Positions 32,416 through 47,462 of a stretch of DNA of 64,000 nt are shown one piece after another; positions within the stretch are counted from its first letter, which is position 1; each line of letters starts with the position of its first letter. Source of the DNA: Candidatus Freyarchaeum deiterrae (GTDB lineage Archaea > Asgardarchaeota > Jordiarchaeia > Jordiarchaeales > Jordiarchaeaceae); the NCBI GenBank assembly GCA_037305845.1, contig CP147778.1:3072001-3136000 (forward strand), given 5' to 3'. The position numbers and the translations under genes were made by a program. The notes under the pieces were generated by a model. That model was not told the DNA's origin and made no database searches. It was given only the letters and a program-made list of their open reading frames with translations.

Positions 32416-34302
32416 GTGAAAGAATTCGCTATAAGGTTCGAACCAGACGGCAAAAAAATCGCAGCTGATAATGGGCTAAACATACTAGATTTAGCTAAAG
32501 AAGGAGGTGTGGGAATCCGCTCTGAATGTGGCGGGAAAGGGAAATGTGGGAAATGCCGAATCAAAGTCGAGAATCAGCGTAACCTAAATGAAGTAACCGA
32601 TACAGAGAGAGAACACCTGACACTAGAAGAAATTAATCAAGGGTATCGGTTAGCCTGCATGGCCTCGATCCGTGGGAATTTGGTGGTGTTTATTCCGAGT
32701 GAGAGTCGATTGAGTGTGAGAAGAATACAGGTACATGGTATGGAACAACCTGTTAAACTAGAACCGAACGTTAAGAAAATTAATCTATTTTTGGAAAAGC
32801 CCACAATTCAAAATCCCATAGCAGATGATCTAAACATTTTTACTAATCCGGAGAAGTTATCTAATCTCCAAGATTTGGAATTTGAATATGAGCTGCTGAG
32901 AATAATTCCGGATGTTGTAAGGAAGGGGGATTGGAATGTTACAATTACCATTCTGGGTGATAGAAAAATTATTGATTTAGAGCCTTTCAATACGACTGCA
33001 CGAATTTTTGGATTCGCAATTGATATAGGCACTTCCAAGCTCGTTGGATATCAGGTAGATTTGAACAGTGGCGAAGTTGTTGGAGTTGGATCCATAGAAA
33101 ATCCCCAGATTGCTTATGGAGAAGACGTGCTTTCTCGAATATCCTATGCCGAAGAGGGATACGAGAACAAGCAGAGATTACAGAATCTGACAGCAGAGGG
33201 AATTAACAAAATAATTCAGATGGCTTGCGAAGAATCGGGAGTAGATCCAAAAGAAATTTACGAGTTGACCGTCGTGGGCAACACCGCCATGTTCAGCCTA
33301 TTTCTAGGCATCCAAACCAAGTATCTACACTTGGCACCCTATGTTCCGGGAGTGAAGTTCCCAGTCACCGTTGGAGCGAAAACACTAAACATAAATGTTA
33401 ACCCTAGAGCAAGTGTTTACGTTCTGCCTAATATTGCGGGCTACGTGGGCGCAGACGCGGTTGGCGACGTATTAGCGACCGGTATTTATGATCTGGATGA
33501 AATATGCTTGCTTGTGGATGTTGGAACCAATGGTGAAGTCTTCGTCGGCAATAAGGAGGACATTGTCAGTTGTTCCTGCGCCGCGGGACCCGCTTTCGAG
33601 GGAGTCCACATTCAGTACGGCATGAAAGCTGTAACCGGGGCAATTGAGAGAGTGCAAATAAAACCCAAAACCTTTGATGTTAAGTGCGAAACAATTGGAG
33701 GTTCAAAGCCAGTCGGTATATGCGGCTCAGGAATAATTGACATTGTAGCAGAAATGTTCAGGTGTGGAATTATTACCGAAAGAGGAAAATTCAACGACCT
33801 AGATACACCAAGAATAATTAGAGCCGAAGGAAGACCAGAATTTGTGGTAGCTTGGAAAGAAGAAACCGCCATTGGGAAAAACATTACAGTCTCTATGAAA
33901 GACGTGGAAGAAATCCAATTAGCAAAAGCCGCAATACACGCGGGCTGCGTTGTCCTAATGAAGAAGAAAGAATTGACCGACAACGAGATAGACAAGGTTT
34001 TCATAGCCGGGGCTTTTGGCAACTACATTAACCCCGAGAGCGCAAAATTCTTGGGACTCATTCCAGACATACCCACCGAAAAAATCACGTTTGCAGGAAA
34101 CACCGCCCTCGCGGGAGCCAAAATGGCCCTCGTTTCAAGGGAGGTTCGAAACATCGCACGAAGGTTGTCCAAGTGGATAAGATACGTGGAGCTAATGGCT
34201 GAGCCGGGCTTCAAAAGCGAATTCGTGAAATCAAACCTGATCCCCTACAAAAATCTGGAAGGGTATCCCTCAATAAAGAAATATTTGGAAGAAAACAGGT
34301 AA
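32416..34302 (+). CDS. Reductive activator of corrinoid proteins (RACo; [2Fe-2S] + ASKHA ATPase)
   Basis: CGGKGKCGKC...RLAC; AIDIGTS, YVGAD, DVGTNGE, AAGPAFEG, GICGSG, QLAKAA, AGAFG. Confidence 0.95.
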   Translation: MKEFAIRFEPDGKKIAADNGLNILDLAKEGGVGIRSECGGKGKCGKCRIKVENQRNLNEVTDTEREHLTLEEINQGYRLACMASIRGNLVVFIPSESRLSVRRIQVHGMEQPVKLEPNVKKINLFLEKPTIQNPIADDLNIFTNPEKLSNLQDLEFEYELLRIIPDVVRKGDWNVTITILGDRKIIDLEPFNTTARIFGFAIDIGTSKLVGYQVDLNSGEVVGVGSIENPQIAYGEDVLSRISYAEEGYENKQRLQNLTAEGINKIIQMACEESGVDPKEIYELTVVGNTAMFSLFLGIQTKYLHLAPYVPGVKFPVTVGAKTLNINVNPRASVYVLPNIAGYVGADAVGDVLATGIYDLDEICLLVDVGTNGEVFVGNKEDIVSCSCAAGPAFEGVHIQYGMKAVTGAIERVQIKPKTFDVKCETIGGSKPVGICGSGIIDIVAEMFRCGIITERGKFNDLDTPRIIRAEGRPEFVVAWKEETAIGKNITVSMKDVEEIQLAKAAIHAGCVVLMKKKELTDNEIDKVFIAGAFGNYINPESAKFLGLIPDIPTEKITFAGNTALAGAKMALVSREVRNIARRLSKWIRYVELMAEPGFKSEFVKSNLIPYKNLEGYPSIKKYLEENR

Positions 34303-34338: not shown

Positions 34339-36048
34339 TTAAAGTTTTAAATCATAGACCTTTTTCAGAGCCTCTAACTGCTCTTTCCCGGTTTCTTTTT
34401 CGGGTTTGGGTTCACCTTCTTCTTTCTTGTGGCTCTTGGCTGGTAGTATTTCGTCTATTCGTAGCACGATTCTTGCAACATCTGTAGCTGAATTTAACGC
34501 ATGAACCTTTACCCTGAGCGTATCATAGATTCCTATTTTTTGCATATCATCGATCTGACCATCGATTGCGTTTACCCCCGCCCAGATCATTCCCTCACTG
34601 TGTTTTGCCTTTAGTTCGGTTAGAATTTGTAATGGGTCTAGTCCCGCGTTATCCGCTAGGGTTTGCGGTACTATCATGATTGCCTCTGCGTAAGCTAAAA
34701 TCGCCAACTGTTCTTTTCCCTCGAATGTCTGTGCGTATTGCCCTAAACACCTAGAGAGTTCTATTTCTGACGCTCCGCCGCCGGGTATAATTCGAGGGTC
34801 TTCTATGATGTTCCTAATGGTGTAGAGCGCGTCGTAAAGGCTTCTTTCCGCTTCTTCCAGAGCGTATTCGTTTCCTCCTCTTATAATGACGCTTGAAGCT
34901 CCCTGAGCTGGGCATCCTCTAACCATAATATAATTTTCTTTTTCGGAGGGTTTCCATTCTTCAATCACTTCTGCTTTTCCCAATTTGTCACTTGTTAAAT
35001 CTTCATTAAAAATGTCGGACACTACTGATGCCTCAGTCAACTTGGCAATCCTGTTAGTATCGGGTAGAAGAACACGCTTAACGGCCAGTATCTCCGCTCG
35101 TGCGAGATAATGTTCAACTATCTCATCTATTCCCTTATTCACAAGAGCAACATTTGCTCCAGACGAGATTAGTTTATTCACTATTTCTTTAACTATCTCT
35201 ACTCTCTTTTCTATGAAGGCTTCGTGCTCTTGAGGTGCTCTGACCTGTATCTTCATATTTTTTCCAGCAGCTTCCCACCAGCTCCCCGAAATTTCCTTCA
35301 ACTCCATACTTCTTATCAGGGCGACCTTGGCGTTTTCAACTCGCCTAGGCATATCAGGATGCACGATTTCTCTATCCTCAATAACATAACCGTCCACAAC
35401 GTAGGAGTCGCTGAGAGTACCCCCTCTCCTTTTAATCACTTTGATGTCTTCAATGTTCGTTCTCGGTTTTCCAGTAACTTCACTTACAACTCGTTCGGCT
35501 AATTCGAGAGCAATTTCGCTGAACTCATTCACAGTTTCAGGTGCACTTGTGATCTTCGTGTTTATGGCGGTCGAAGCCGACTTCCTTAAGATGTCCTTAT
35601 CACTGGGTTTTACAGGAACAGCGATTTCCTCTAATCTTTTAATTGCTCTTTTTAACGCTAAATCGTATCCTTTTAGAATGGTTGAAGGGTGAAGCCCTTG
35701 GTCCATTAGGGTTTCCGCCTTTCTGAGAAGCTCACCAGCTAAAATTACCGCGGTGGCTACTCCGTCGCCCACTATGGCATCCTGCGCCTTCGCCATCCCA
35801 ATCAAAATTCTAGCTACGGGGTGCTCTGCCTTAAGATTCTTAAGTATGGTGAATGAATCACCGGTTATCAGCACTTCTCCATCCTTTTTGAGGATTGCCT
35901 TATTCACACTATATGGTCCAATGGTTTTTCTTACAATCTGGCAAATGATACCGGCTACCATAATGTTACTCTTAAGAGACGCTAAATCTAACCCGTGTTC
36001 CAGTTTGTACACTGGCTTAAACCTTAGAGAGGTATCTTTTCCCAGCAA
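34339..36048 (-). CDS. Divergent group II chaperonin (thermosome-like) subunit
   Basis: EHPVA, VGDGVAT, KGIDE, IIRGG, ERSLYDA, PGGGASE, LADNAG, LRIDE. Confidence 0.92.
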   Translation of the reverse strand: MLGKDTSLRFKPVYKLEHGLDLASLKSNIMVAGIICQIVRKTIGPYSVNKAILKKDGEVLITGDSFTILKNLKAEHPVARILIGMAKAQDAIVGDGVATAVILAGELLRKAETLMDQGLHPSTILKGYDLALKRAIKRLEEIAVPVKPSDKDILRKSASTAINTKITSAPETVNEFSEIALELAERVVSEVTGKPRTNIEDIKVIKRRGGTLSDSYVVDGYVIEDREIVHPDMPRRVENAKVALIRSMELKEISGSWWEAAGKNMKIQVRAPQEHEAFIEKRVEIVKEIVNKLISSGANVALVNKGIDEIVEHYLARAEILAVKRVLLPDTNRIAKLTEASVVSDIFNEDLTSDKLGKAEVIEEWKPSEKENYIMVRGCPAQGASSVIIRGGNEYALEEAERSLYDALYTIRNIIEDPRIIPGGGASEIELSRCLGQYAQTFEGKEQLAILAYAEAIMIVPQTLADNAGLDPLQILTELKAKHSEGMIWAGVNAIDGQIDDMQKIGIYDTLRVKVHALNSATDVARIVLRIDEILPAKSHKKEEGEPKPEKETGKEQLEALKKVYDLKL

Positions 36049-36166: not shown

Positions 36167-36505
36167 TCATGTCCAACTCACAACTTTCTGGTATTTTTCC
36201 ATTGTGAGGTCGACCCATCCTCCGTAATCTACCAGCTGCACGCCCTTTATCATTCTTTCCTCAGGAATTCCTCTAGCTTCAGCGTCCGGTTTCAAGACGT
36301 ATACATTAACGCCTACGTCGAGTGCGTTTTTCAAAAGTTCCGCTACTAGTCCCTTCTCTTCCCTGATTGCACTAAGTACTGCATCCTGGATCAACATCAA
36401 ACCCACTTCTTCGTCCATTTTCCTCAAATTTAAGGACGCTTCAAACGCGTACGTGTCATCCTTTGTGAAATAAGGCGACTTGGATACTAGTATCAATGTT
36501 GCCAT
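36167..36505 (-). CDS. dsrH: DsrH/TusB family sulfur-relay protein
   Basis: SKSPY, LIQDAV, YVLKPDAEARG, VDY..WVDL......VSW. Confidence 0.85.
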   Translation of the reverse strand: MATLILVSKSPYFTKDDTYAFEASLNLRKMDEEVGLMLIQDAVLSAIREEKGLVAELLKNALDVGVNVYVLKPDAEARGIPEERMIKGVQLVDYGGWVDLTMEKYQKVVSWT

Positions 36506-36521
36506 CTTTAATCATCTCCTT

Positions 36522-36881
36522 CTAGAAAGCCATTGCTATATCATTTTCAGCAATGATTTTAGCTACATCCCCCTGAACTATGCTTTCAATGGAAAGACCT
36601 GGGATTAAATCGTTCATGGTGAGACCTCTCTCATAAAGCGATTCTTCAACCACATAGAGTTTGGACTCAAAATTCTGTAACATTTTAAGAAACCGGTCAA
36701 TGGCTGAGTATCCAATAGCTTTTGGAAACTGATTCTTCATCGGACAGTAAACACCATCATCAATGAAAAGAAGAGTTACCGGAATTGTGAGAGCCCCAGC
36801 CGCGGCCGCTAATCGCACAGCTTCCACAACATGTATCCAGCCGAACGGAGGCTTCCTAATTATAAGCAGCAACTTCATCAC
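36522..36881 (-). CDS. dsrF: DsrF/TusC family sulfur-relay protein
   Basis: RKPPFG, EAVR, LFIDDGVY, YVVEESLYERG. Confidence 0.82.
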   Translation of the reverse strand: MMKLLLIIRKPPFGWIHVVEAVRLAAAAGALTIPVTLLFIDDGVYCPMKNQFPKAIGYSAIDRFLKMLQNFESKLYVVEESLYERGLTMNDLIPGLSIESIVQGDVAKIIAENDIAMAF

Positions 36882-36898: not shown

Positions 36899-37255
36899 CT
36901 ATATTGTAATAGCGAAAAATCGGTCCGCGTCCCTTATGATTTCTAGAACTGTGGTTGTGCTCTCCATGGTAGCGCCAGGGATGAAGTCTGTCTCGGGTTT
37001 TAAGCCACGAGCGGTGCAACAAGGGAAGCAGTTAACGAACTTCACTCCCTTCTCGCTCAGTTCCTTAAACCTGCCCACGGGGGAAGGCATATCCTCCACG
37101 ATCAAAAATTTTGCAGCATTATAAACGCCGTCTCCCATACCAATAACTGTTACCTCATGTCTCTTCTCAAGAGCCGCGTTTATGAACTCAATCGCGGTGT
37201 CCGAATTCTCAAACTGTAGAGGAGTAGTAAACAGTAAAATCGCTACTTTACCCAT
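36899..37255 (-). CDS. dsrE: DsrE/TusD family sulfur-relay protein
   Basis: TTP, GDGVYNA, NCFPCCTARG (persulfide Cys position retained); start at MGKVA. Confidence 0.82.
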   Translation of the reverse strand: MGKVAILLFTTPLQFENSDTAIEFINAALEKRHEVTVIGMGDGVYNAAKFLIVEDMPSPVGRFKELSEKGVKFVNCFPCCTARGLKPETDFIPGATMESTTTVLEIIRDADRFFAITI

Positions 37256-37304
37256 AAAATCACTACGCAAACTTCTTAGACTAACATGGTCTGCTTATCT
37301 ATAC

Positions 37305-38246
37305 CTAGAATATTTTGTTTAAAGGATGTGAGGGCTCCTGCCTTACCCGATATTTTCTTCTGTTATAATATCCTACAAGACCGTTGACCATAGCACAGGC
37401 AGGGAAAACCGATTCCGCCTCCTCAATGGGACCGTATAAGGCGAAGTCAGCACCCATCATTGCCGTTACCAGCACTGAGCCGGATATGCACGACTTGTAC
37501 GAAACGGGTGGAAACTCTTTCTTAATCTTTTTCCAAGCGGTAATGGCGTTCGCGGGGCCGCATCCTGAAGGAAGCCCGAACTCATTTTTCACAGAGTATA
37601 TGGTCTGCGCTGCGAAGGATATACTAACCACATCGAGCACCGCGGTGTCCACGAGCATGTTTTGGATTCCCGCTTCCTGCGCCTTTTGGATTAATCCCTT
37701 CTCACCACCAGTACCCTTTAACAATTCTATTCTGCCTTCCGGCATCAAAGCCTTGGGACTGAACACGAGTAGCATGCTGGATTTTACACCGAGTTCTCGA
37801 AGAGTGTTAAGTTCACTCTCTTTGGAGTGCACATCTATCGAATTGTAGATAGCCCGCTCAGCTAATCCCGCTTCAACAGCGTACTTAATAGCCGCCAATC
37901 GAGCCTCTGGGAGAGTGCTGTCCACGAGAAAGGGAGCCTTTGTTAATTGAGCCACAAAATCAATTTGTTTTTCGAGAGCCTCAGCAGTATCTCCCACAAT
38001 ATCCAATATGCCGGGGTTCCCAGTTTTATCGGACATCTCATCCTGCTTGTTGATTAGCTCCTCCGCCTTTTTCTTATCGAATATTCCCTTTTGACGGTCA
38101 GAAACAATCTTGTGTTTATCATAAAAAATGCTTCCAATCAGTACTGTGGGATAAGCACCCGGTTGGCCACCGATTTTTACACCATTAATGTCCCAAACCT
38201 TTTGTTCCTTTTCAAAAGCAAACACATCGCATACCTCACTTTTCAA
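37305..38246 (-). CDS. mtrH: MtrH-like methylcorrinoid:tetrahydro(methano)pterin methyltransferase (MT2; MtoA/MtgA type)
   Basis: FEKEQKV..I.GVKIGGQPG.YPTVLIGSIFYDKH, IYNSI, FGLPSGCG, YGPIE; no other mtr genes nearby. Confidence 0.9.
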   Translation of the reverse strand: MKSEVCDVFAFEKEQKVWDINGVKIGGQPGAYPTVLIGSIFYDKHKIVSDRQKGIFDKKKAEELINKQDEMSDKTGNPGILDIVGDTAEALEKQIDFVAQLTKAPFLVDSTLPEARLAAIKYAVEAGLAERAIYNSIDVHSKESELNTLRELGVKSSMLLVFSPKALMPEGRIELLKGTGGEKGLIQKAQEAGIQNMLVDTAVLDVVSISFAAQTIYSVKNEFGLPSGCGPANAITAWKKIKKEFPPVSYKSCISGSVLVTAMMGADFALYGPIEEAESVFPACAMVNGLVGYYNRRKYRVRQEPSHPLNKIF

Positions 38247-38520: not shown

Positions 38521-41500
38521 ATGCCTCAACTGAAAATCTACAAATTTTTCACAAGCAGTAAGAAGAATTTTTATTTAAAGGGACTCGAATTGTCTGGAGA
38601 CAACTATTCCTATAATTCTTCAGGGGACTTGTCTTCTCTTCGGGAGACTATCGCCGCAGTCAAAACCTTAGCGGATTTCATAAAGAGTTCCTTTGGTCCC
38701 ACTGGCATGAATAAACTTATTGTTGATGAAAAAGGAGACGTTACGATAACAAGGGACGGTTTTACTATTTTAGATAAAGTGGGAGGAGGTCATCCTGCGG
38801 TCAGGGTCCTTAAGGACGCCGCCGAGACACAAGACTTGGAGGTTGGGGATGGAACAAAGACAACGGTGATACTAGCCAGCGAGCTTTTGAGCAGGGCTGA
38901 ACAACTGCTCGATAAAGGAATTCATCCCACGACCCTAATACGAGGATACTCAAGAGCCTTTAAAGAAGTATTGAAAATTCTTGAAGAGATTGCCATTCCT
39001 ACTGATTCAACCAACAGGGAGATACTGAAAAAAGTAGCAGTCAATGCTATGACGGGTAAGCTTAACTTAGAGGAGTGCGAATTTCTTTCGCAAATGGTTG
39101 TGGATGCCGTCTTACACGTCTCAAAAAATATTGGTGAAAAGCGTTTCGTTGATGTTCAAAAAATCGTAATTGAAAAGAAACTGGGGGGCGTAGTTGCAGA
39201 CAGCGAGTTGGTTAAGGGCGTGTTATTAAGCAAAGAAGCCTCCCATAATGAAATGCCGAAAAGTGTTGAAAACGCAAGAATAGCTCTCCTTAAATGTCCT
39301 CTGGAAATTGAAAAAACCGAATTCGATACCAAAATTCTAATAGAGAATCCAGAGAGAATAAAAGATTTTTTGGAAGAAGAAGAATCAGTAATAAAACAAA
39401 TGGTTGGAAAACTATCAGAACTGGGTGTGAACGTTGTCTTCTCCGAAAAAGGAATCGACGACCTAGCCCAATATCTTTTGGCTAGTAGGGGAATTCTCGG
39501 TGCTGAGTGGGTGGGAAATGCTAACATCAAAAACGTGGCTTCAGCAACAGGCGGCAAACTCGTAGCGGATATTAACGACCTTAAATCCGACGATCTGGGA
39601 TACGCGGGTTTTGTCCGAGAAAAAGAATTCGGAGAAGAAAGAATAATACTCGTTGAACAGTGTGAAAACCCATTCACCGTGACCATTCTTCTGAGGGGAG
39701 GAGCCCAAAGCATTCTGGACGAGTTGGAAAGAGCAGTTCATGACGCAGTTTGTGCAGCAAAAGACGTGGTCGAGAACCCCCTGATACTAGTGGGAGGGGG
39801 AGCCTCAGAAACCGAAATCTCAAAAAGGATCAGAGCCGCTGCCCAAGGAAATGGAAAAGAGCAATTGGCGTACACGGCCTTCGCAGAAGCTCTGGAAGCG
39901 TTAACCTTTTTGCTCGCCAAAAATTTGGGTCTTGACGCGTTGAACAAGGTTGCTGAGCTGACAAGGAGACATAGTTCGGGAGAAATCTACGCCGGAATAG
40001 ATGCGATTGATGGGGAAATCAAAGATCTAATGAATCTTGGAATCTACGAACCTTTCCTCGTAAAAACCCAAGCCATGAAATCCGCTTACGAGGCAGCAAC
40101 AATGATTCTCAGAATAGACGATATATTTACAGCCGAAGAACTTGAAAAAGAATCGGAAACACTGGACTATATGCGTCCTCTAAAGGGGGTCAAAACGCGG
40201 GAAAAAGTTTTCGAAACCACCCTCAACAATATATCAGCTTTTAGTGTCATCGCCGACGCAGTAAAACCCTGCTTTGGTCCCCGAGGAAGAAGCAAACTGC
40301 TCATAGACAATATAGGAGGCCTAAAATATACCGGTGACGGGGCAACTATTCTGGGATTCATGTACATTAAGCACCCCGCAGCAAAAATGTTAGTCGACCT
40401 CACAGAAGCCCAGAGCAAATACATCGGTGATGGGACAAAAGCCAGCGTCATCCTAGCAGGCGAGTTGCTGAAGAATGCTGAGGAACTATTAAGCCAGAAA
40501 GTACACCCCACTGTGATTATAAACGGTTACAAAAAAGCTACACAAAAGGCTCTGGAACTTTTGAAGAATATGGCACTACCAATAAATCACGAGGATTCTG
40601 GAACTCTAAAAAAAGTCGCCCTAACAACTATAAGCGGGAAAATCACTGATGGAAAAGAGCTATTCGCTGAAATGGCTGTTAAAGCTATAAACAGTGTAGT
40701 AGAAGCAAAGAAAGTTCCCAATATTGATATTAGAAAAATCAAGATTTTGAAGGAACAGGGGAAAAGTCTTGGTGAAAGTGAACTCTTCGCGGGAGTTATT
40801 CTGGAAAGAGAGGTCATCAGTCCCAAGATGCCCAAAAGAGTTGATCAAGCCAGAATCGCATTACTTGATTGTTGGTTGAGGGTCTCCCAACAGAATTTTA
40901 GAAGAGATCTGGAGATTCGTATCCAAAGCTCCGATGAGTATAAAGTTCATTTAGACACTCTAAAAGAATTAGCAAGGGACATGGTAAAGAAAATAGAGAG
41001 TACGGGAGCCAATGTTGTCTTGTGTACAAAAGCGGTAGATGACTTAACAGCACATTTTCTCGCAGAATCTGGGATTTTAACTGTTGCTCAGCTGACAAGT
41101 ATAGATCTCAAAATAATATCTGAGGCAGCCGGTGGGAAAATCGTAACCGACCTAAATGATTTGAGAAGAGAGTATCTTGGAATGGCGGAAACTGTAGAGG
41201 AAAGAAAAATCGGTGGGAAGGAGCTTGTTTTCGTTAACTGTTCTGGATTAAGATGCGCCAGTGTTGTTATCAGGGGGGGCGCCGAGGACATATTGGGCGA
41301 AGCGGAGAGAGTATTCCGTAACGTGTTAAAAGTTTTAAAAGTTGTAATTATGGAAGGTAAAGTGGTCGCGGGGGGCGGCTCAGTGGAAGTAGAACTCGCC
41401 AAAGAGGTAAAAAGACACGCAAAGAACTTTTCTAAAAGAGAGCAACTAGCCGTGGAGAAATACGCAAAGGCCCTTGAATCTATACCCAAAACCTTGGCTG

Positions 41501-41766
41501 AAAACTCTGGATTGAATGCATTAAAAACTTTGGCCGAGCTCAAGGCTCTGCACGAAAACCCCCAAAATGTGTGGATAGGGATCAGCGAAAAGGGAAAACT
41601 AGAGAACATGAGGACTCTAAACGTTTTAGAACCTTTAAGTCTCAAAACACATCTAATCAAGTCTGCAAATGAGATAGCAGAAACCATTCTGAGGATAGAC
41701 GAGGTAATATTAGAAAAAGAAAAAGTGACGGCAGATAAATCTGAAAAGGCGTTAAACGGAAATTGA
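38521..41766 (+). CDS. Tandem-fused double group II chaperonin (two complete thermosome-like subunits)
   Basis: Two full motif sets: FGPTG/DGFTIL/GDGTKT/ERAVHDA/GGGASE/ILRIDD, then FGPRG/DGATIL/GDGTKA/ERVFRNV/GGGSVE/ILRIDE; start may be TTG 38590. Confidence 0.92.
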   Translation: MPQLKIYKFFTSSKKNFYLKGLELSGDNYSYNSSGDLSSLRETIAAVKTLADFIKSSFGPTGMNKLIVDEKGDVTITRDGFTILDKVGGGHPAVRVLKDAAETQDLEVGDGTKTTVILASELLSRAEQLLDKGIHPTTLIRGYSRAFKEVLKILEEIAIPTDSTNREILKKVAVNAMTGKLNLEECEFLSQMVVDAVLHVSKNIGEKRFVDVQKIVIEKKLGGVVADSELVKGVLLSKEASHNEMPKSVENARIALLKCPLEIEKTEFDTKILIENPERIKDFLEEEESVIKQMVGKLSELGVNVVFSEKGIDDLAQYLLASRGILGAEWVGNANIKNVASATGGKLVADINDLKSDDLGYAGFVREKEFGEERIILVEQCENPFTVTILLRGGAQSILDELERAVHDAVCAAKDVVENPLILVGGGASETEISKRIRAAAQGNGKEQLAYTAFAEALEALTFLLAKNLGLDALNKVAELTRRHSSGEIYAGIDAIDGEIKDLMNLGIYEPFLVKTQAMKSAYEAATMILRIDDIFTAEELEKESETLDYMRPLKGVKTREKVFETTLNNISAFSVIADAVKPCFGPRGRSKLLIDNIGGLKYTGDGATILGFMYIKHPAAKMLVDLTEAQSKYIGDGTKASVILAGELLKNAEELLSQKVHPTVIINGYKKATQKALELLKNMALPINHEDSGTLKKVALTTISGKITDGKELFAEMAVKAINSVVEAKKVPNIDIRKIKILKEQGKSLGESELFAGVILEREVISPKMPKRVDQARIALLDCWLRVSQQNFRRDLEIRIQSSDEYKVHLDTLKELARDMVKKIESTGANVVLCTKAVDDLTAHFLAESGILTVAQLTSIDLKIISEAAGGKIVTDLNDLRREYLGMAETVEERKIGGKELVFVNCSGLRCASVVIRGGAEDILGEAERVFRNVLKVLKVVIMEGKVVAGGGSVEVELAKEVKRHAKNFSKREQLAVEKYAKALESIPKTLAENSGLNALKTLAELKALHENPQNVWIGISEKGKLENMRTLNVLEPLSLKTHLIKSANEIAETILRIDEVILEKEKVTADKSEKALNGN

Positions 41767-41786
41767 GATTTTCCCAATTCCTCTAC

Positions 41787-41800
41787 AAAAACTTATATAA
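41787..41800 (+). promoter_or_regulatory. Candidate archaeal BRE/TATA promoter for the corrinoid protein operon
   Basis: AAAAACTTATATAA about 65 nt upstream of ATG 41865. Confidence 0.35.
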
Positions 41801-41864
41801 CAGTTTACTAAGATATAATGAAATAAGTATTTCTTTTTAAAAAATTTTTTGAGCGAGTGATAAC

Positions 41865-42512
41865 ATGTCGGAAAGCGAAATTTTAGAAAAGTTATCTCAA
41901 GCATTAACAAACGGTGACGACTTACTCGCTGCAGACCTTGCAAAGCAAGCACTTAAAAAAGGAATTTCCGCCATCGATATACTGAACAAGGGATGCACAC
42001 CGGGAATGCTCAAAGCCGGAGAAATGTACGCGTCCGGGCTCGGAGGGGCCTCACTCACCGACCTTCTAATGAGCGGCGAATCCATGCAGGCGGTACTCGC
42101 AGTGATCAGGCCCTACCTGAAAGCAGAAAAAGCTGAAGCAGCTGGCAGACTAGTTATCGGAATGATAGAGGGAGACCTGCACACCATAGGAAAATCCGTT
42201 GTTGTTTCAATGTTTGAATCTGCTGGCTGGGCAGTCACAGATTTAGGCGAAGATGTACCCGCAGAAAAATTCATCGAAGCCGCCAAAAGAGAAAAGGCAA
42301 ACATAATTGGCGCAGCATCCGCAATTTCCGGCTGTCTAGACAAGCTAAAAACATTGAAGGAAATGATTGATAAGGAGAATCTTTCCGTCAAATACCTGGT
42401 AGGCGGATGGGCAACAGGCCCCGAATTCGCCAAATCTATTGGTGCCTACTTTGCGAGAGACGCTTTAGCAGCAGTACAATTAGCCTCAGAACTAATAGAA
42501 GAGGCTGAATAA
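41865..42512 (+). CDS. Corrinoid (cobalamin-binding) methyl-carrier protein
   Basis: N-terminal cap helices plus EGDLHTIGK (DxHxxG), DLGEDVP, GAS, VGG. Confidence 0.93.
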   Translation: MSESEILEKLSQALTNGDDLLAADLAKQALKKGISAIDILNKGCTPGMLKAGEMYASGLGGASLTDLLMSGESMQAVLAVIRPYLKAEKAEAAGRLVIGMIEGDLHTIGKSVVVSMFESAGWAVTDLGEDVPAEKFIEAAKREKANIIGAASAISGCLDKLKTLKEMIDKENLSVKYLVGGWATGPEFAKSIGAYFARDALAAVQLASELIEEAE

Positions 42513-42533: not shown

Positions 42534-43910
42534 ATGCCCGAAGGTGAAGAATACTTATCTTGGTATAAGAAGCCCGAGCCATACACCACCGTCTCTGATA
42601 AGCCGACCGAAGCCGGTGGAAAGAAGGCGGCTCCTTGGTGCGACTACACCTACAGCGAATGGGAAATATACGAGAAACAGAAGATACCCGACTGGTATTG
42701 GAACTTCAAACCCCCAGAATGGTCTGAGGAAGAGCAGGTCATAATGGAGCGAATAATGCTCAAGCTACAGGAAAATATCGCCAAAGAAAAAATGACCCCA
42801 TTGGACAGATATTGGGCTACTGCCTATGGTGTAGAAAGAGACCGTTGCCCTGTGATGGGAGGCAACTACGCACTTGCAACCAACTCCCCGAGACTATTAG
42901 ACTCCTATGGTGTAATTTTGAAGGGAGTGGACTTTCACAGGTATCCTAAACTACACATACTGGGAACCACTATGGCTGTGGCGAGGTTCGCTACAGACAT
43001 CATATTCACCCACAAAATCACTTACTCTGAAGCCGAGTGGGGTGGACATGTTTACTTGAAGGAAACCTCTGCTCCTGTGTGTAGAAGCTCCGGAGCAATG
43101 GAAACAGGCTTCAAGGTTCCATTTCTACCGTACCGAACTGCGCCTTTCCTCTCACACAAAATACCAGAAGCAGACTACGGAGCTTACGCCCACCAGTTAT
43201 GGGAAATCAGAACCATCAAGGAGTATCTCAGAAAAGCAGGACTCTGGGGAGTACTGCCCCTCATGACAAACACCTGCGTAGGTCCCATAGGTACAGCTGG
43301 AGCAGCCATCGGTCCCACTCTGGGTATTCGAGAGAGAGCCATAATGTATAAGCGAAATCCTGAATGGTACCACATGTGTATGAGAGAGGCTCTCAGATTC
43401 TGCATAAGACACCACAGAGCAGTAAGGGACGCTGGCACGGACATAATGTTCTTCTGTGACGGTCTTAACACCATGGGAACGGATATGACCGCAGACCTAA
43501 TACCATACCACGTGGATTTGTGCAAGGAAGTCCACTGGCCCCCAGGAGGAACATGTATAACCGGTGGAGACTTCCGTCGCCATGTGGACATCATACTTCA
43601 GGCACACGGAAAATACGCATACTTGGTGGGCAGCGACCACGTGTGGCCGATACAGGATGCCCTTAAAACAGCTCTCCAATATGACAAGATGTGGTTCGAC
43701 TTCCCGGACTGGGATAAGATTAAGGCGGCTAAACTTGAGGATATCGCTGCCTATGAGAAAGAGAGATTCAAGATTGCCTGTGAGGATCCGAAGAGCAAGT
43801 ACTGGAACCCCGGACCGGCTGACTACTGGATACCCATGGAAAATTATCAAGCTTGGGCGGATGCATCTAAAAAGTACGGCTCCTACCCTAATGGCTGGGA
43901 ACAACCGTAA
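42534..43910 (+). CDS. Highly divergent URO-D/MtaA-fold methyltransferase (putative substrate:corrinoid MT1)
   Basis: MTPLDRY.AT.YG.E.DRCPV opening, GPI..A, Y.RNPE.YH..M, AGTDI, IPMEN..AW..A..KYG ending; directly after corrinoid gene. Confidence 0.7.
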   Translation: MPEGEEYLSWYKKPEPYTTVSDKPTEAGGKKAAPWCDYTYSEWEIYEKQKIPDWYWNFKPPEWSEEEQVIMERIMLKLQENIAKEKMTPLDRYWATAYGVERDRCPVMGGNYALATNSPRLLDSYGVILKGVDFHRYPKLHILGTTMAVARFATDIIFTHKITYSEAEWGGHVYLKETSAPVCRSSGAMETGFKVPFLPYRTAPFLSHKIPEADYGAYAHQLWEIRTIKEYLRKAGLWGVLPLMTNTCVGPIGTAGAAIGPTLGIRERAIMYKRNPEWYHMCMREALRFCIRHHRAVRDAGTDIMFFCDGLNTMGTDMTADLIPYHVDLCKEVHWPPGGTCITGGDFRRHVDIILQAHGKYAYLVGSDHVWPIQDALKTALQYDKMWFDFPDWDKIKAAKLEDIAAYEKERFKIACEDPKSKYWNPGPADYWIPMENYQAWADASKKYGSYPNGWEQP

Positions 43911-44742: not shown

Positions 44743-45267
44743 ATGGCCAAAGTCGCAAAAATAGGAGAAATGTTCTTTCCACTAGAACTTTACTATTCAC
44801 ACAATAAGAGAGGTCATACCTGGATAAAAAAAATGGATGATGGAAATCTACAGATAGGCTTGGACTACTACGGCGCTATACCCATGATGATTACAACAAT
44901 ATCTCATCCCCTGCCTTACGTTATTGAACTTCCTCCAGCAGGAACTCAACTCAAACAGGATCAGCCCTACGGTCTTCTAGAAACCGTAAAGTATATTGGA
45001 CCATTCTATGCACCACTAACCGGAACCATTGTTAAAATTAATCCGGATAGAGTATCCTCACCACCCCATAATATTAGAAATTCATACGTAGACGGTTGGT
45101 TCCTTATTCTCAAACCCGCAAATTACGAAAAGGAAATAAAAAATCTTCTAACCGGCGAAGAGGCAGTAAAGTGGATTATTAAAGATATAATCGAGTACTC
45201 GGAAGCGGAAGACGAAGAACTCACAAAACAAGCAAAGCAAGGCTACACCATTGAGGAAATGAAGTAA
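44743..45267 (+). CDS. Glycine cleavage H-like lipoyl-carrier protein
   Basis: HTWI...QIGLD.Y, ELPPAG, LETVK (lipoyl-Lys position), APLTGTIVKIN, YVDGW. Confidence 0.85.
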   Translation: MAKVAKIGEMFFPLELYYSHNKRGHTWIKKMDDGNLQIGLDYYGAIPMMITTISHPLPYVIELPPAGTQLKQDQPYGLLETVKYIGPFYAPLTGTIVKINPDRVSSPPHNIRNSYVDGWFLILKPANYEKEIKNLLTGEEAVKWIIKDIIEYSEAEDEELTKQAKQGYTIEEMK

Positions 45268-45839: not shown

Positions 45840-47462
45840 TTATAAATTGACTTGGGGTGCAGCCCTTTTCTCCGCACACCACTCTTCTTGCGTCTTGCCA
45901 AATTTATCCTCTATCTGCTGTCTATAAATGTTGTTGTAGGTACAAAATGGAATTATTCTGCCATCGGGAGTAGGATAGTTAATGTCGCAATACTGGATTC
46001 GCTCCAAGTCAAGATTGTAAGGATCCATAAAATGCATCAAACCCAACATAATCACGTTGTGCATGAAGTTTCTCAGAGAGCTGTAACTACCCCTTTTTAG
46101 AAACATTGATGTGAGATCCTTAATCAACCCCTTCTTCTTGATGTGCCTAAGGGAACCCGCTAGTTTAAGTTTAGCACGTACACTTGCAAACTGCTTTCCT
46201 TCAGCGTAGAGATTACATATGTCCCCCAGAACATTCAAGATTTTATCTATATCAATAACCTCAGTAATCGGATAATAGGAACCATCATTTCTGAGAAACA
46301 AGAAGCTCGCCATACCGCACGCAAAATGCGCGCTCAGCTCAAGCTCCGGACTTCCCTTGATAAGCCCCAACGCCCTTCCTAGCAGAACCATTGAAGGAAT
46401 AGTATACCAATCGGCTACCTTGATCTTCCCGGCGGTCTGCTCTTCAATGAGATGTATTACTTCTGGTATAGTGATACGCATCTTTCGGAGTTCTTCGTGG
46501 TCGATTCGGCCAGTAATGCTTACGGGCTGAAAGTTGACGCATCGAACAATGTCTCGGTTCTCCAATGCAAACTGAATAATCTGTCCCACTTGGTTGTCGT
46601 TGACACCCTTCATAATTGTTGGTACTAATATGACACCATCCAGACCCGCTTCCTCACAGTTATTCAATACCTTCTGCTTAATAGGCCTCAGATCCACGTT
46701 TCTCGCAGCTAAGTATGGTTCAGCTGTTACGCCGTCAAACTGAAGATATATAGTGTTTAGACCAGCTTCCACAAGCTCACGTACATAATCGATGCTCTTG
46801 GCCATTCTGATTCCGTTGGTAGCAATCATAATATGATTGAAGCCGAGTCCTTTAGCCCACTTAACATATTGCGGCAGATTCTCGCTTAGTGTAGGCTCAC
46901 CACCAGCGAACTGAATTCCCGGACAAGGTACAGGCAAGTTATGCCGGAGATTCTTCATCATCTTAAGCACTTCTTCTGGAGTCGGCTCATAAACGGTTCC
47001 AGAATCACCAGCATTGGCGAAGCAGATTGGACAACTCAAATTACATCTATTGGTTACATCGATTATAGCCAGAGCGGTGTGCGACCTGTGATTAGGACAC
47101 TGACCGCAGTCCTTCGGACAGCCCTCAATAGACTCGGTTCTTGGGTTGTCAATACCTATCGACTTATACCAGTATGGCATAACACGTTTGAACATCTCTG
47201 CATCCGACCAATACACATCCACAAACTCACCATGTTTGTCGCAGGCCTTCTTCATCATAACCTTGCCATCTTCTTCATAGACCGTAGCATCTATAACCGT
47301 CACTACTTCATCTTCGAGTTTACACAAGGGGCAAATTGACTTGGTCTGATAGGGCAGTACCCGAACAGGATGCTTCTCAACGCGATATCGGGAGAGATCC
47401 TTATCCTTGTGTGTGGGTAAAACTTCAGGCACAGGTTTAATCCCCGTTGTTCCCATAAACAA
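45840..47462 (-). CDS. tes: Tetraether lipid synthase (radical SAM, Tes/GDGT-MAS family)
   Basis: TKSICPLC...KKACDKHG, GCPKDCGQC, CNLSCPIC, QFAGGEPT, YLQFDG, NFQPVS, H.ACG, MHFMD.YN, RIIPFCTYN. Confidence 0.85.
   Translation of the reverse strand: MFMGTTGIKPVPEVLPTHKDKDLSRYRVEKHPVRVLPYQTKSICPLCKLEDEVVTVIDATVYEEDGKVMMKKACDKHGEFVDVYWSDAEMFKRVMPYWYKSIGIDNPRTESIEGCPKDCGQCPNHRSHTALAIIDVTNRCNLSCPICFANAGDSGTVYEPTPEEVLKMMKNLRHNLPVPCPGIQFAGGEPTLSENLPQYVKWAKGLGFNHIMIATNGIRMAKSIDYVRELVEAGLNTIYLQFDGVTAEPYLAARNVDLRPIKQKVLNNCEEAGLDGVILVPTIMKGVNDNQVGQIIQFALENRDIVRCVNFQPVSITGRIDHEELRKMRITIPEVIHLIEEQTAGKIKVADWYTIPSMVLLGRALGLIKGSPELELSAHFACGMASFLFLRNDGSYYPITEVIDIDKILNVLGDICNLYAEGKQFASVRAKLKLAGSLRHIKKKGLIKDLTSMFLKRGSYSSLRNFMHNVIMLGLMHFMDPYNLDLERIQYCDINYPTPDGRIIPFCTYNNIYRQQIEDKFGKTQEEWCAEKRAAPQVNL

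Follow-up and report, generated by a model that had tools for sequence, protein, structure and literature searches.

The closest described relatives of the protein considered here are archaeal thermosomes, such as those of Thermoplasma acidophilum (alpha/beta, PDB 1A6D) and Sulfolobus (alpha/beta/gamma), in which two or three paralogous types of PF00118 subunit each have three domains and a built-in lid and carry both termini inside the cavity, facing the inner chamber at the equatorial domain (PMC4746591). Subunits of this family build double rings with eight or nine members in each ring. A polypeptide of this family holds one subunit of ~500–600 amino acids (aa), a rule to which the group II chains in the PDB, with one unit each, offer no exception. 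In eukaryotic CCT/TRiC, a hetero-oligomer with fixed subunit order and unequal ATP use, the order is set by eight separate paralogs with specific interfaces, and how a homo-oligomeric chaperonin ring turns into an ordered hetero-oligomer of this kind is an open evolutionary and mechanistic question. Tandem-linked group II chaperonins have reportedly been engineered as Thermococcus KS-1 concatamers, which are laboratory constructs of identical subunits. Here we analyzed 64,000 nucleotides (nt) of the genome of Candidatus Freyarchaeum deiterrae, an Asgard archaeon from wetland sediment (GCA_037305845.1, contig CP147778.1, positions 3,072,001 to 3,136,000; this whole stretch is referred to as the window, and positions are given within it unless a contig is named), in which one gene on the + strand (38521–41766) breaks the one-subunit rule by encoding two chaperonin units, A and B, in a single stop-free frame of 1081 codons.

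We conclude that this natural fusion is genuine, old and selected, and that it represents a new architecture of group II chaperonin and not a new type of machine. No earlier description was found: a full-text literature search, whose coverage did not extend to subscription journals, returned neither a natural two-unit group II chaperonin nor a linkage of thermosome, MtrH and DsrE genes.

The fused reading frame and its junction

A preliminary description of the window, made from its letters and reading frames, had proposed a 1081-aa open reading frame (ORF) with two complete, mutually diverged thermosome units. The uninterrupted frame bears this out, as do the two matches of Pfam PF00118 (Cpn60_TCP1), each near the full profile (1018.8 bits in total; the first covers residues 50–538 and profile positions 1–488 of 490), and the identity between the units, which amounts to 38% over 507 aligned residues. 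In the search of the genome, A and B scored 547 and 484 bits against Cpn60_TCP1, and the fused chain aligned contiguously to PDB thermosome chains (best matches E = 1e−119 to 1e−143). Unit A occupies residues ~38–536 (38632–40128) and unit B residues 550–1081 (40168–41763), the latter terminating in a Lys/Glu-rich C tail. The ORF measures 1081 aa from the ATG at 38521 and ~1058 aa from the TTG at 38590 (Leu24), which is the likelier start and matches the position of the initial Met in the closest relatives; the true fused product may be the one of ~1058 aa that begins at this TTG. A scan for promoters and terminators of bacterial type, which does not apply to archaea, gave nothing above chance. 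The fused gene encodes a single chain in which two group II chaperonin paralogs of ancient divergence, A followed by B, are connected by a short conserved linker.

The linker had been described as a stop-free stretch of roughly 30 aa. The quoted peptide is present and free of stops, at residues 528–566 (junction-spanning peptide ESETLDYMRPLK), but the part that lies outside either fold comprises only ~12–13 residues (Thr537–Asp549, 40129–40167), between RIDDIF, the C-terminal strand of A, and YMRPLK, the N-terminal strand of B, while residues 550–584 correspond in the alignment to the regular beginning of a thermosome subunit, its N-terminal strand and first helix. From anchor to anchor the spacing is 46 residues in the fusion vs. 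~68 when summed from the canonical subunit pair of the same genome, so the fusion lacks the flexible, Gly/Met-rich C tail of A and also the initial residues of B, and the linker stands in for both. Since both ends of a thermosome subunit point into the chamber at the equatorial level, a tether of ~13 residues could reach the neighbouring subunit.

Across 12 orthologs the length of the junction differs by only 0–2 residues, and its column conservation (0.73–0.78) comes close to that of the cores (0.81–0.83), above that of the two free ends of the protein (N terminus 0.58, C tail 0.35). The ratio of nonsynonymous to synonymous substitution rates (dN/dS), obtained from ortholog pairs with unsaturated synonymous sites, was 0.16–0.20 for A, 0.17–0.19 for B, and 0.09–0.14 for the junction, values that indicate purifying selection on the junction as well as on the whole length of the protein.

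Occurrence of the fusion in two lineages

A search of 5.8 billion proteins recovered 12 further clusters of the fusion (1053–1076 aa, 65–88% identity over 96–98% of the query), all of them named Freyarchaeota, Jordarchaeum, Jordarchaeaceae, or Lokiarchaeia by their submitters. The fused frame is intact in three congeneric genomes (G001, G003, G004), and in a fourth (G002) it is broken only by contig ends. Among 400 Asgard species genomes screened at E ≤ 1e−155 the fusion was found in no genus beyond the one in Jordarchaeia. Open frames of > 1100 aa in three genomes (G012, G021, G038) were inspected as candidates for additional fusions and rejected, as they consist of adjacent separate genes with spacers of ~10–50 nt; in other Asgard families the two canonical thermosome paralogs frequently lie side by side on the same strand at such distances (L020, L021, L022, L023, L061, L063).

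Of the clusters listed by an exhaustive HMMER search across 1.84 billion representatives, only two are two-unit, the fusion described here (P0002) and P0119, a protein of 1047 aa that is colinear with it at 35% identity. P0119 has four relatives of 1040–1082 aa, two of which (P0272, P0273) carry the names Candidatus Njordarchaeota and Njordarchaeum guaymaensis, and this second lineage thus comprises five two-unit clusters at ~35% identity to the Jordarchaeia fusion, all with the same A-then-B order. Its taxonomy is taken from the NCBI names of P0272 and P0273, because two scans of species-representative genome contigs did not find it there. Relatives with two Cpn60_TCP1 units, for which the preliminary description had suggested looking at ~1050–1100 aa, exist in 12 clusters of Jordarchaeia type and five of the second lineage (1040–1082 aa). 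That description had also considered that reads might reveal a stop or an indel in the linker; Logan contigs from four metagenome runs of wetland and freshwater sediment covered positions 40100–40250 with zero differences and contained neither. The conservation across lineages is a stronger argument against an artefact than these metagenome contigs.

Two further observations were made during the mapping of contigs. One contig of run X6 is one G short in a run of seven (41273–41279) inside unit B, a loss that would put the final ~165 codons out of frame. A homopolymer error is the probable cause, and strain or phase variation the less likely one. An apparent deletion joining 39471 to 41188 was rejected, as it stems from 26-nt matches of a contig that belongs to another paralog.

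Origin of the two units

The history of the units was reconstructed from 47 of them in a maximum-likelihood tree (IQ-TREE, LG+C20, careful search; support given as ultrafast bootstrap/Shimodaira–Hasegawa-like approximate likelihood ratio test). The preliminary description had proposed placing each half against housekeeping thermosomes and CCT, and in the tree each half found its counterpart in the other lineage, apart from canonical thermosomes: A of Jordarchaeia grouped with A of the second lineage (100/96) and B with B (100/98). The third chaperonin unit of the window, C (described below), formed a clade with its orthologs, including the copy beside P0119 (100/99). A tree of 99 rows was concordant, and an approximately unbiased (AU) test rejected A and B of Jordarchaeia as sisters (p = 0.0026), and with it a duplication specific to the lineage. 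From the two clades and the AU test it follows that the divergence of A and B preceded the acquisition or inheritance of the gene by the two lineages. Given the identical order of units and the synteny, a single old fusion event is the simplest reading, after which the module may have been inherited or transferred.

Canonical Asgard thermosomes and CCT (represented in the trees by the alpha and delta subunit types) formed one clade (100/99), with A, B, C and two further paralogs of the genome, s873 and s1977, outside of it. A grouped weakly with C and s873, and B, also weakly, with s1977 (70–85% support). The relevance to CCT-type ordering that had been attributed to the fusion is hence one of analogy and not of descent, as A, B, and C fall outside the clade that holds the sampled CCT subunits. 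The adjacent separate thermosome genes of other Asgard families are canonical and therefore not direct precursors of A and B.

The chaperonin set of the genome

The closed 3.58-Mb genome encodes seven Cpn60_TCP1 units in six genes, which is an unusually rich set of paralogs for an archaeon. The canonical units are two, s2030 and s2009, and they fall together with the thermosomes of every other Asgard family. The remaining five are non-canonical; in four of them, s873 and s1977 included, the P-loop contains a Lys (GDGxK), in contrast to the GDGTT of canonical thermosomes and CCT. The AB fusion is accordingly an accessory system alongside a canonical thermosome pair, and not the housekeeping thermosome.

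The single subunit gene that had been noted at 34339 was confirmed as the divergent chaperonin C (34339–36048, − strand, 569 aa, PF00118 with E = 2e−145), the orthologs of which adjoin the fusion on L084, L085, L087 and in G003 and G004. In another genome of the same genus (G005, 96% complete) AB, C and the cognate mtrH are absent together while the four other chaperonin genes are kept; either the module is dispensable, or a single locus was left unassembled.

Gene neighbourhood

In the window, the gene for RACo (reductive activator of corrinoid proteins; 32416–34302, +) flanks C, which is followed on the − strand by dsrH (36167–36505), dsrE/F (36522–36881), dsrE (36899–37270) and mtrH (37305–38246), these four being identified with Pfam and divergent from the fusion. 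Downstream of AB, the + strand carries genes for a B12-binding corrinoid protein (41865–42512), a weak URO-D/MtaA-like protein (42534–43910), an SCP2 protein and a GcvH-like protein with a lipoyl-carrier fold (44743–45267). The gene order is identical in a metagenome-assembled genome of Jordarchaeaceae (L087), and all four AB-bearing congeners have the cognate mtrH (83–84% identity) on the same contig.

The same cluster accompanies the second lineage. On all three of its contigs (L084, L085, L086) mtrH-dsrE-dsrE-dsrH diverge from AB, which is followed by an ORF of 43–59 aa and gcvH, and C is located past dsrH on two of these contigs; the corrinoid and URO-D/MtaA-like genes between fusion and gcvH are found in the Jordarchaeia type only. 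The small ORFs (L084:9224–9403, L085:8032–8163, L086:5908–6087) have no Pfam match, and none was present in the matching gap of the window (41767–41864). A TnpB-like gene (Cas12f1-like_TNB) is inserted between mtrH and the fusion at L084:4621–5844 and is absent from the otherwise identical L085.

Independently, a chaperonin paralog is linked to corrinoid methyltransferase genes a second time in s873 (P-loop GDGTK), whose neighbours encode a corrinoid protein, an MttB-family methyltransferase, and RACo (G000:C1:873428–879746, L088); its ortholog starts 15 nt after mtrH in two genomes of the sister family f2 (L090, L092). Just past the gcvH-like gene, the window also encodes a radical SAM protein with an HMPTM-type zinc ribbon (45840–47462, −), a family that we take to be a pterin C-methylase of methanopterin biosynthesis, and this hints that the cluster works with a C1 carrier of methanopterin type. 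Because non-canonical chaperonin paralogs are repeatedly paired with MtrH or corrinoid methyl-transfer genes, we propose a dedicated client or partner for the fused chaperonin.

Nucleotide sites, proposed function, and alternatives

In 60 canonical rows GMDK, NDGATIL, GDGTT, the sensing-loop Lys and the Asp of HDA are 97–100% conserved, and the canonical nucleotide site (GDGTT, NDG, GMDK, HDA Asp) is found in none of A, B, or C. Unit A reads GDGTKT (38845–38862), RDG and MNK and keeps the catalytic Asp (D408, 39742–39744), which, from the alignment offset and what is known of the family, is presumably the equivalent of Mm-cpn D386 and GroEL D398. In unit B (P-loop GDGTKA, 40426–40443) Asn934 (41320–41322) takes its place, and unit C (GDGVAT) retains it. 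Among orthologs, A has GDG[TA]K with the Asp kept in Jordarchaeia and GDG[TS]K with the Asp replaced by Gln, Ile or Lys in the second lineage, while B has GDG[TA]K in both lineages and has lost the Asp in every ortholog examined (Ser, Asn, or Lys outside this genome). C keeps the Asp in Jordarchaeia, and the one copy of the second lineage examined (L084) has GDGVKT and a Leu in its place. The GDG and GGG glycines are retained in the divergent units, as is the lid segment (the helical protrusion of the apical domain, which group II chaperonins have instead of a GroES partner), with no deletions in A and with two additional residues in B and eight in C. We infer from these features that nucleotide binding persists in the units, with hydrolysis that would be unequal or weak.

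Our preferred account, which we hold with moderate confidence, is that an AB fusion of single origin and accessory status is the building block of a ring that serves the neighbouring methyl-transfer module. The preliminary description had inferred a fixed subunit order, as (AB)4 or as (AB+C)3 with C; the adjacency of A and B and their 1:1 stoichiometry are what is necessarily fixed, provided that the chain stays intact. In the mechanism we propose, every A of a specialised chaperonin-type ring would have a B neighbour, C would probably join as a further subunit, and ATP turnover would be asymmetric: A (and, in Jordarchaeia, C) may be active, and B would be inactive or confined to binding. Rather than general proteostasis, the task of the complex would be to fold, assemble, or hold the neighbouring MtrH-type corrinoid/pterin methyl-transfer module. 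Only tentatively would we go as far as to regard AB and C as a hard-wired three-paralog cage with ATPase asymmetry, dedicated to assembly or holding in a pathway of MtrH-type methyltransferase, DsrEFH and lipoyl carrier, in which covalent linkage would have brought about, in Asgard-related archaea, a subunit specialisation and a fixed order like those of CCT.

Several points weigh against this account. Client specificity is read from gene neighbourhood only, and the Njordarchaeum contig shows no C adjoining the cluster. In the second lineage, where A, B and the C of L084 have all lost the catalytic Asp, a classical folding cycle driven by ATP may not be at work. The long branches of A, B, and C make their deep placement uncertain and the deep nodes unreliable. 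The AlphaFold2 model of the whole chain (AF2; alignment of 17 sequences) had a mean predicted local distance difference test score (pLDDT) of 63.7, < 50 at the junction, and a predicted template modelling score (pTM) of 0.42; it yields no geometry and is too poor for reading the orientation of A and B or the path of the linker. Most metagenome runs that contain the locus may be source samples and are thus not fully independent, and no RNA run was listed as containing it.

The alternative that fares best is that A, B and C form a chaperonin-derived scaffold or holdase that is comparable to the chaperonin-like BBS6/10/12 proteins of eukaryotes and organises or stabilises MtrH, DsrEFH and GcvH, possibly with no closed double rings. 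The departure of every unit from motifs that are nearly invariant in canonical rows, the loss of the catalytic Asp throughout the units examined in the second lineage, and the tight linkage to one metabolic cluster would all suit such a role. We nevertheless consider it unlikely, since both fused units keep the three-domain length, an undeleted lid segment and the glycines of the nucleotide pocket, A and C of Jordarchaeia keep the Asp, and the strong purifying selection over the full length fits retained nucleotide binding and ring architecture.

Two other alternatives concern the state of the chain rather than its role. The fusion might encode a polyprotein that is cut in the linker and merely enforces the 1:1 synthesis of two separate subunits, and a processing site could be the reason why the linker (motif LDY-x-[RHQ]P[LI]K) is so unusually conserved. 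From Tyr550 on, however, the conserved residues align with a normal N-terminal strand, which explains their conservation without cleavage, and ~22 tail residues have been lost relative to two separate subunits, as a permanent tether predicts; to our knowledge, no processing of this kind exists in thermosomes, and we regard the polyprotein as improbable. Still less credence is given to unit B being produced also, or mainly, from an internal start, with free B (and perhaps free A) besides AB. An in-frame ATG does exist at 40171, as had been pointed out, and an AT-rich, TATA-like stretch lies ~50 nt upstream of it, inside the RIDDIF codons. The corresponding Met551 is retained in six of the 12 orthologs and replaced by Thr, Leu, Tyr, or Phe in the others, and an internal start is therefore not a conserved feature, which also speaks against the concern that B might be made from this ATG exclusively. 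Moreover, no Shine-Dalgarno-like GGAGG or GGTG precedes the ATG, no stop closes unit A in any of the 17 orthologous clusters, and the junction is under coding-type constraint. That an error of sequencing or assembly erased a stop or frameshift between two neighbouring genes, as a single error could do where separate thermosome genes lie next to each other as in other Asgard families, is practically untenable, given that the same fusion recurs in two lineages and in different samples, in 17 clusters drawn from assemblies of NCBI, JGI, ENA, and Logan, that the source genome is a closed contig, that the contigs of four runs agree at the junction, and that those adjacent pairs fall in canonical clades and not in A or B.

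Comparison with known chaperonins

The building block that we favour offers a natural case, suitable for laboratory expression, in which linkage imposes adjacency on two diverged subunits, one of them without the catalytic Asp, and in which the neighbouring genes supply a third paralog and a candidate client pathway. It makes testable the size and order of the ring, the tolerance of a group II ring to ATPase-dead positions, and the existence of client-dedicated chaperonins in archaea.

With archaeal thermosomes the fusion shares the PF00118 family, the three-domain subunit with its lid and the use of several paralogous subunit types; it differs by holding two units in a chain where every solved or described thermosome chain has one, by its non-canonical ATP-site motifs, by being accessory to a canonical pair, and by its tie to a metabolic gene cluster. 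The resemblance to CCT/TRiC lies in hetero-oligomery, fixed subunit order and unequal use of ATP, features that are predicted for the fusion in its Asgard host; CCT achieves its order without covalent linkage and keeps the canonical GDGTT and HDA motifs. As in the Thermococcus KS-1 concatamers, the subunits are joined head to tail through cavity-facing termini, but the fusion is natural, combines two paralogs of 38% identity in place of identical copies, and has been conserved across a deep divergence.

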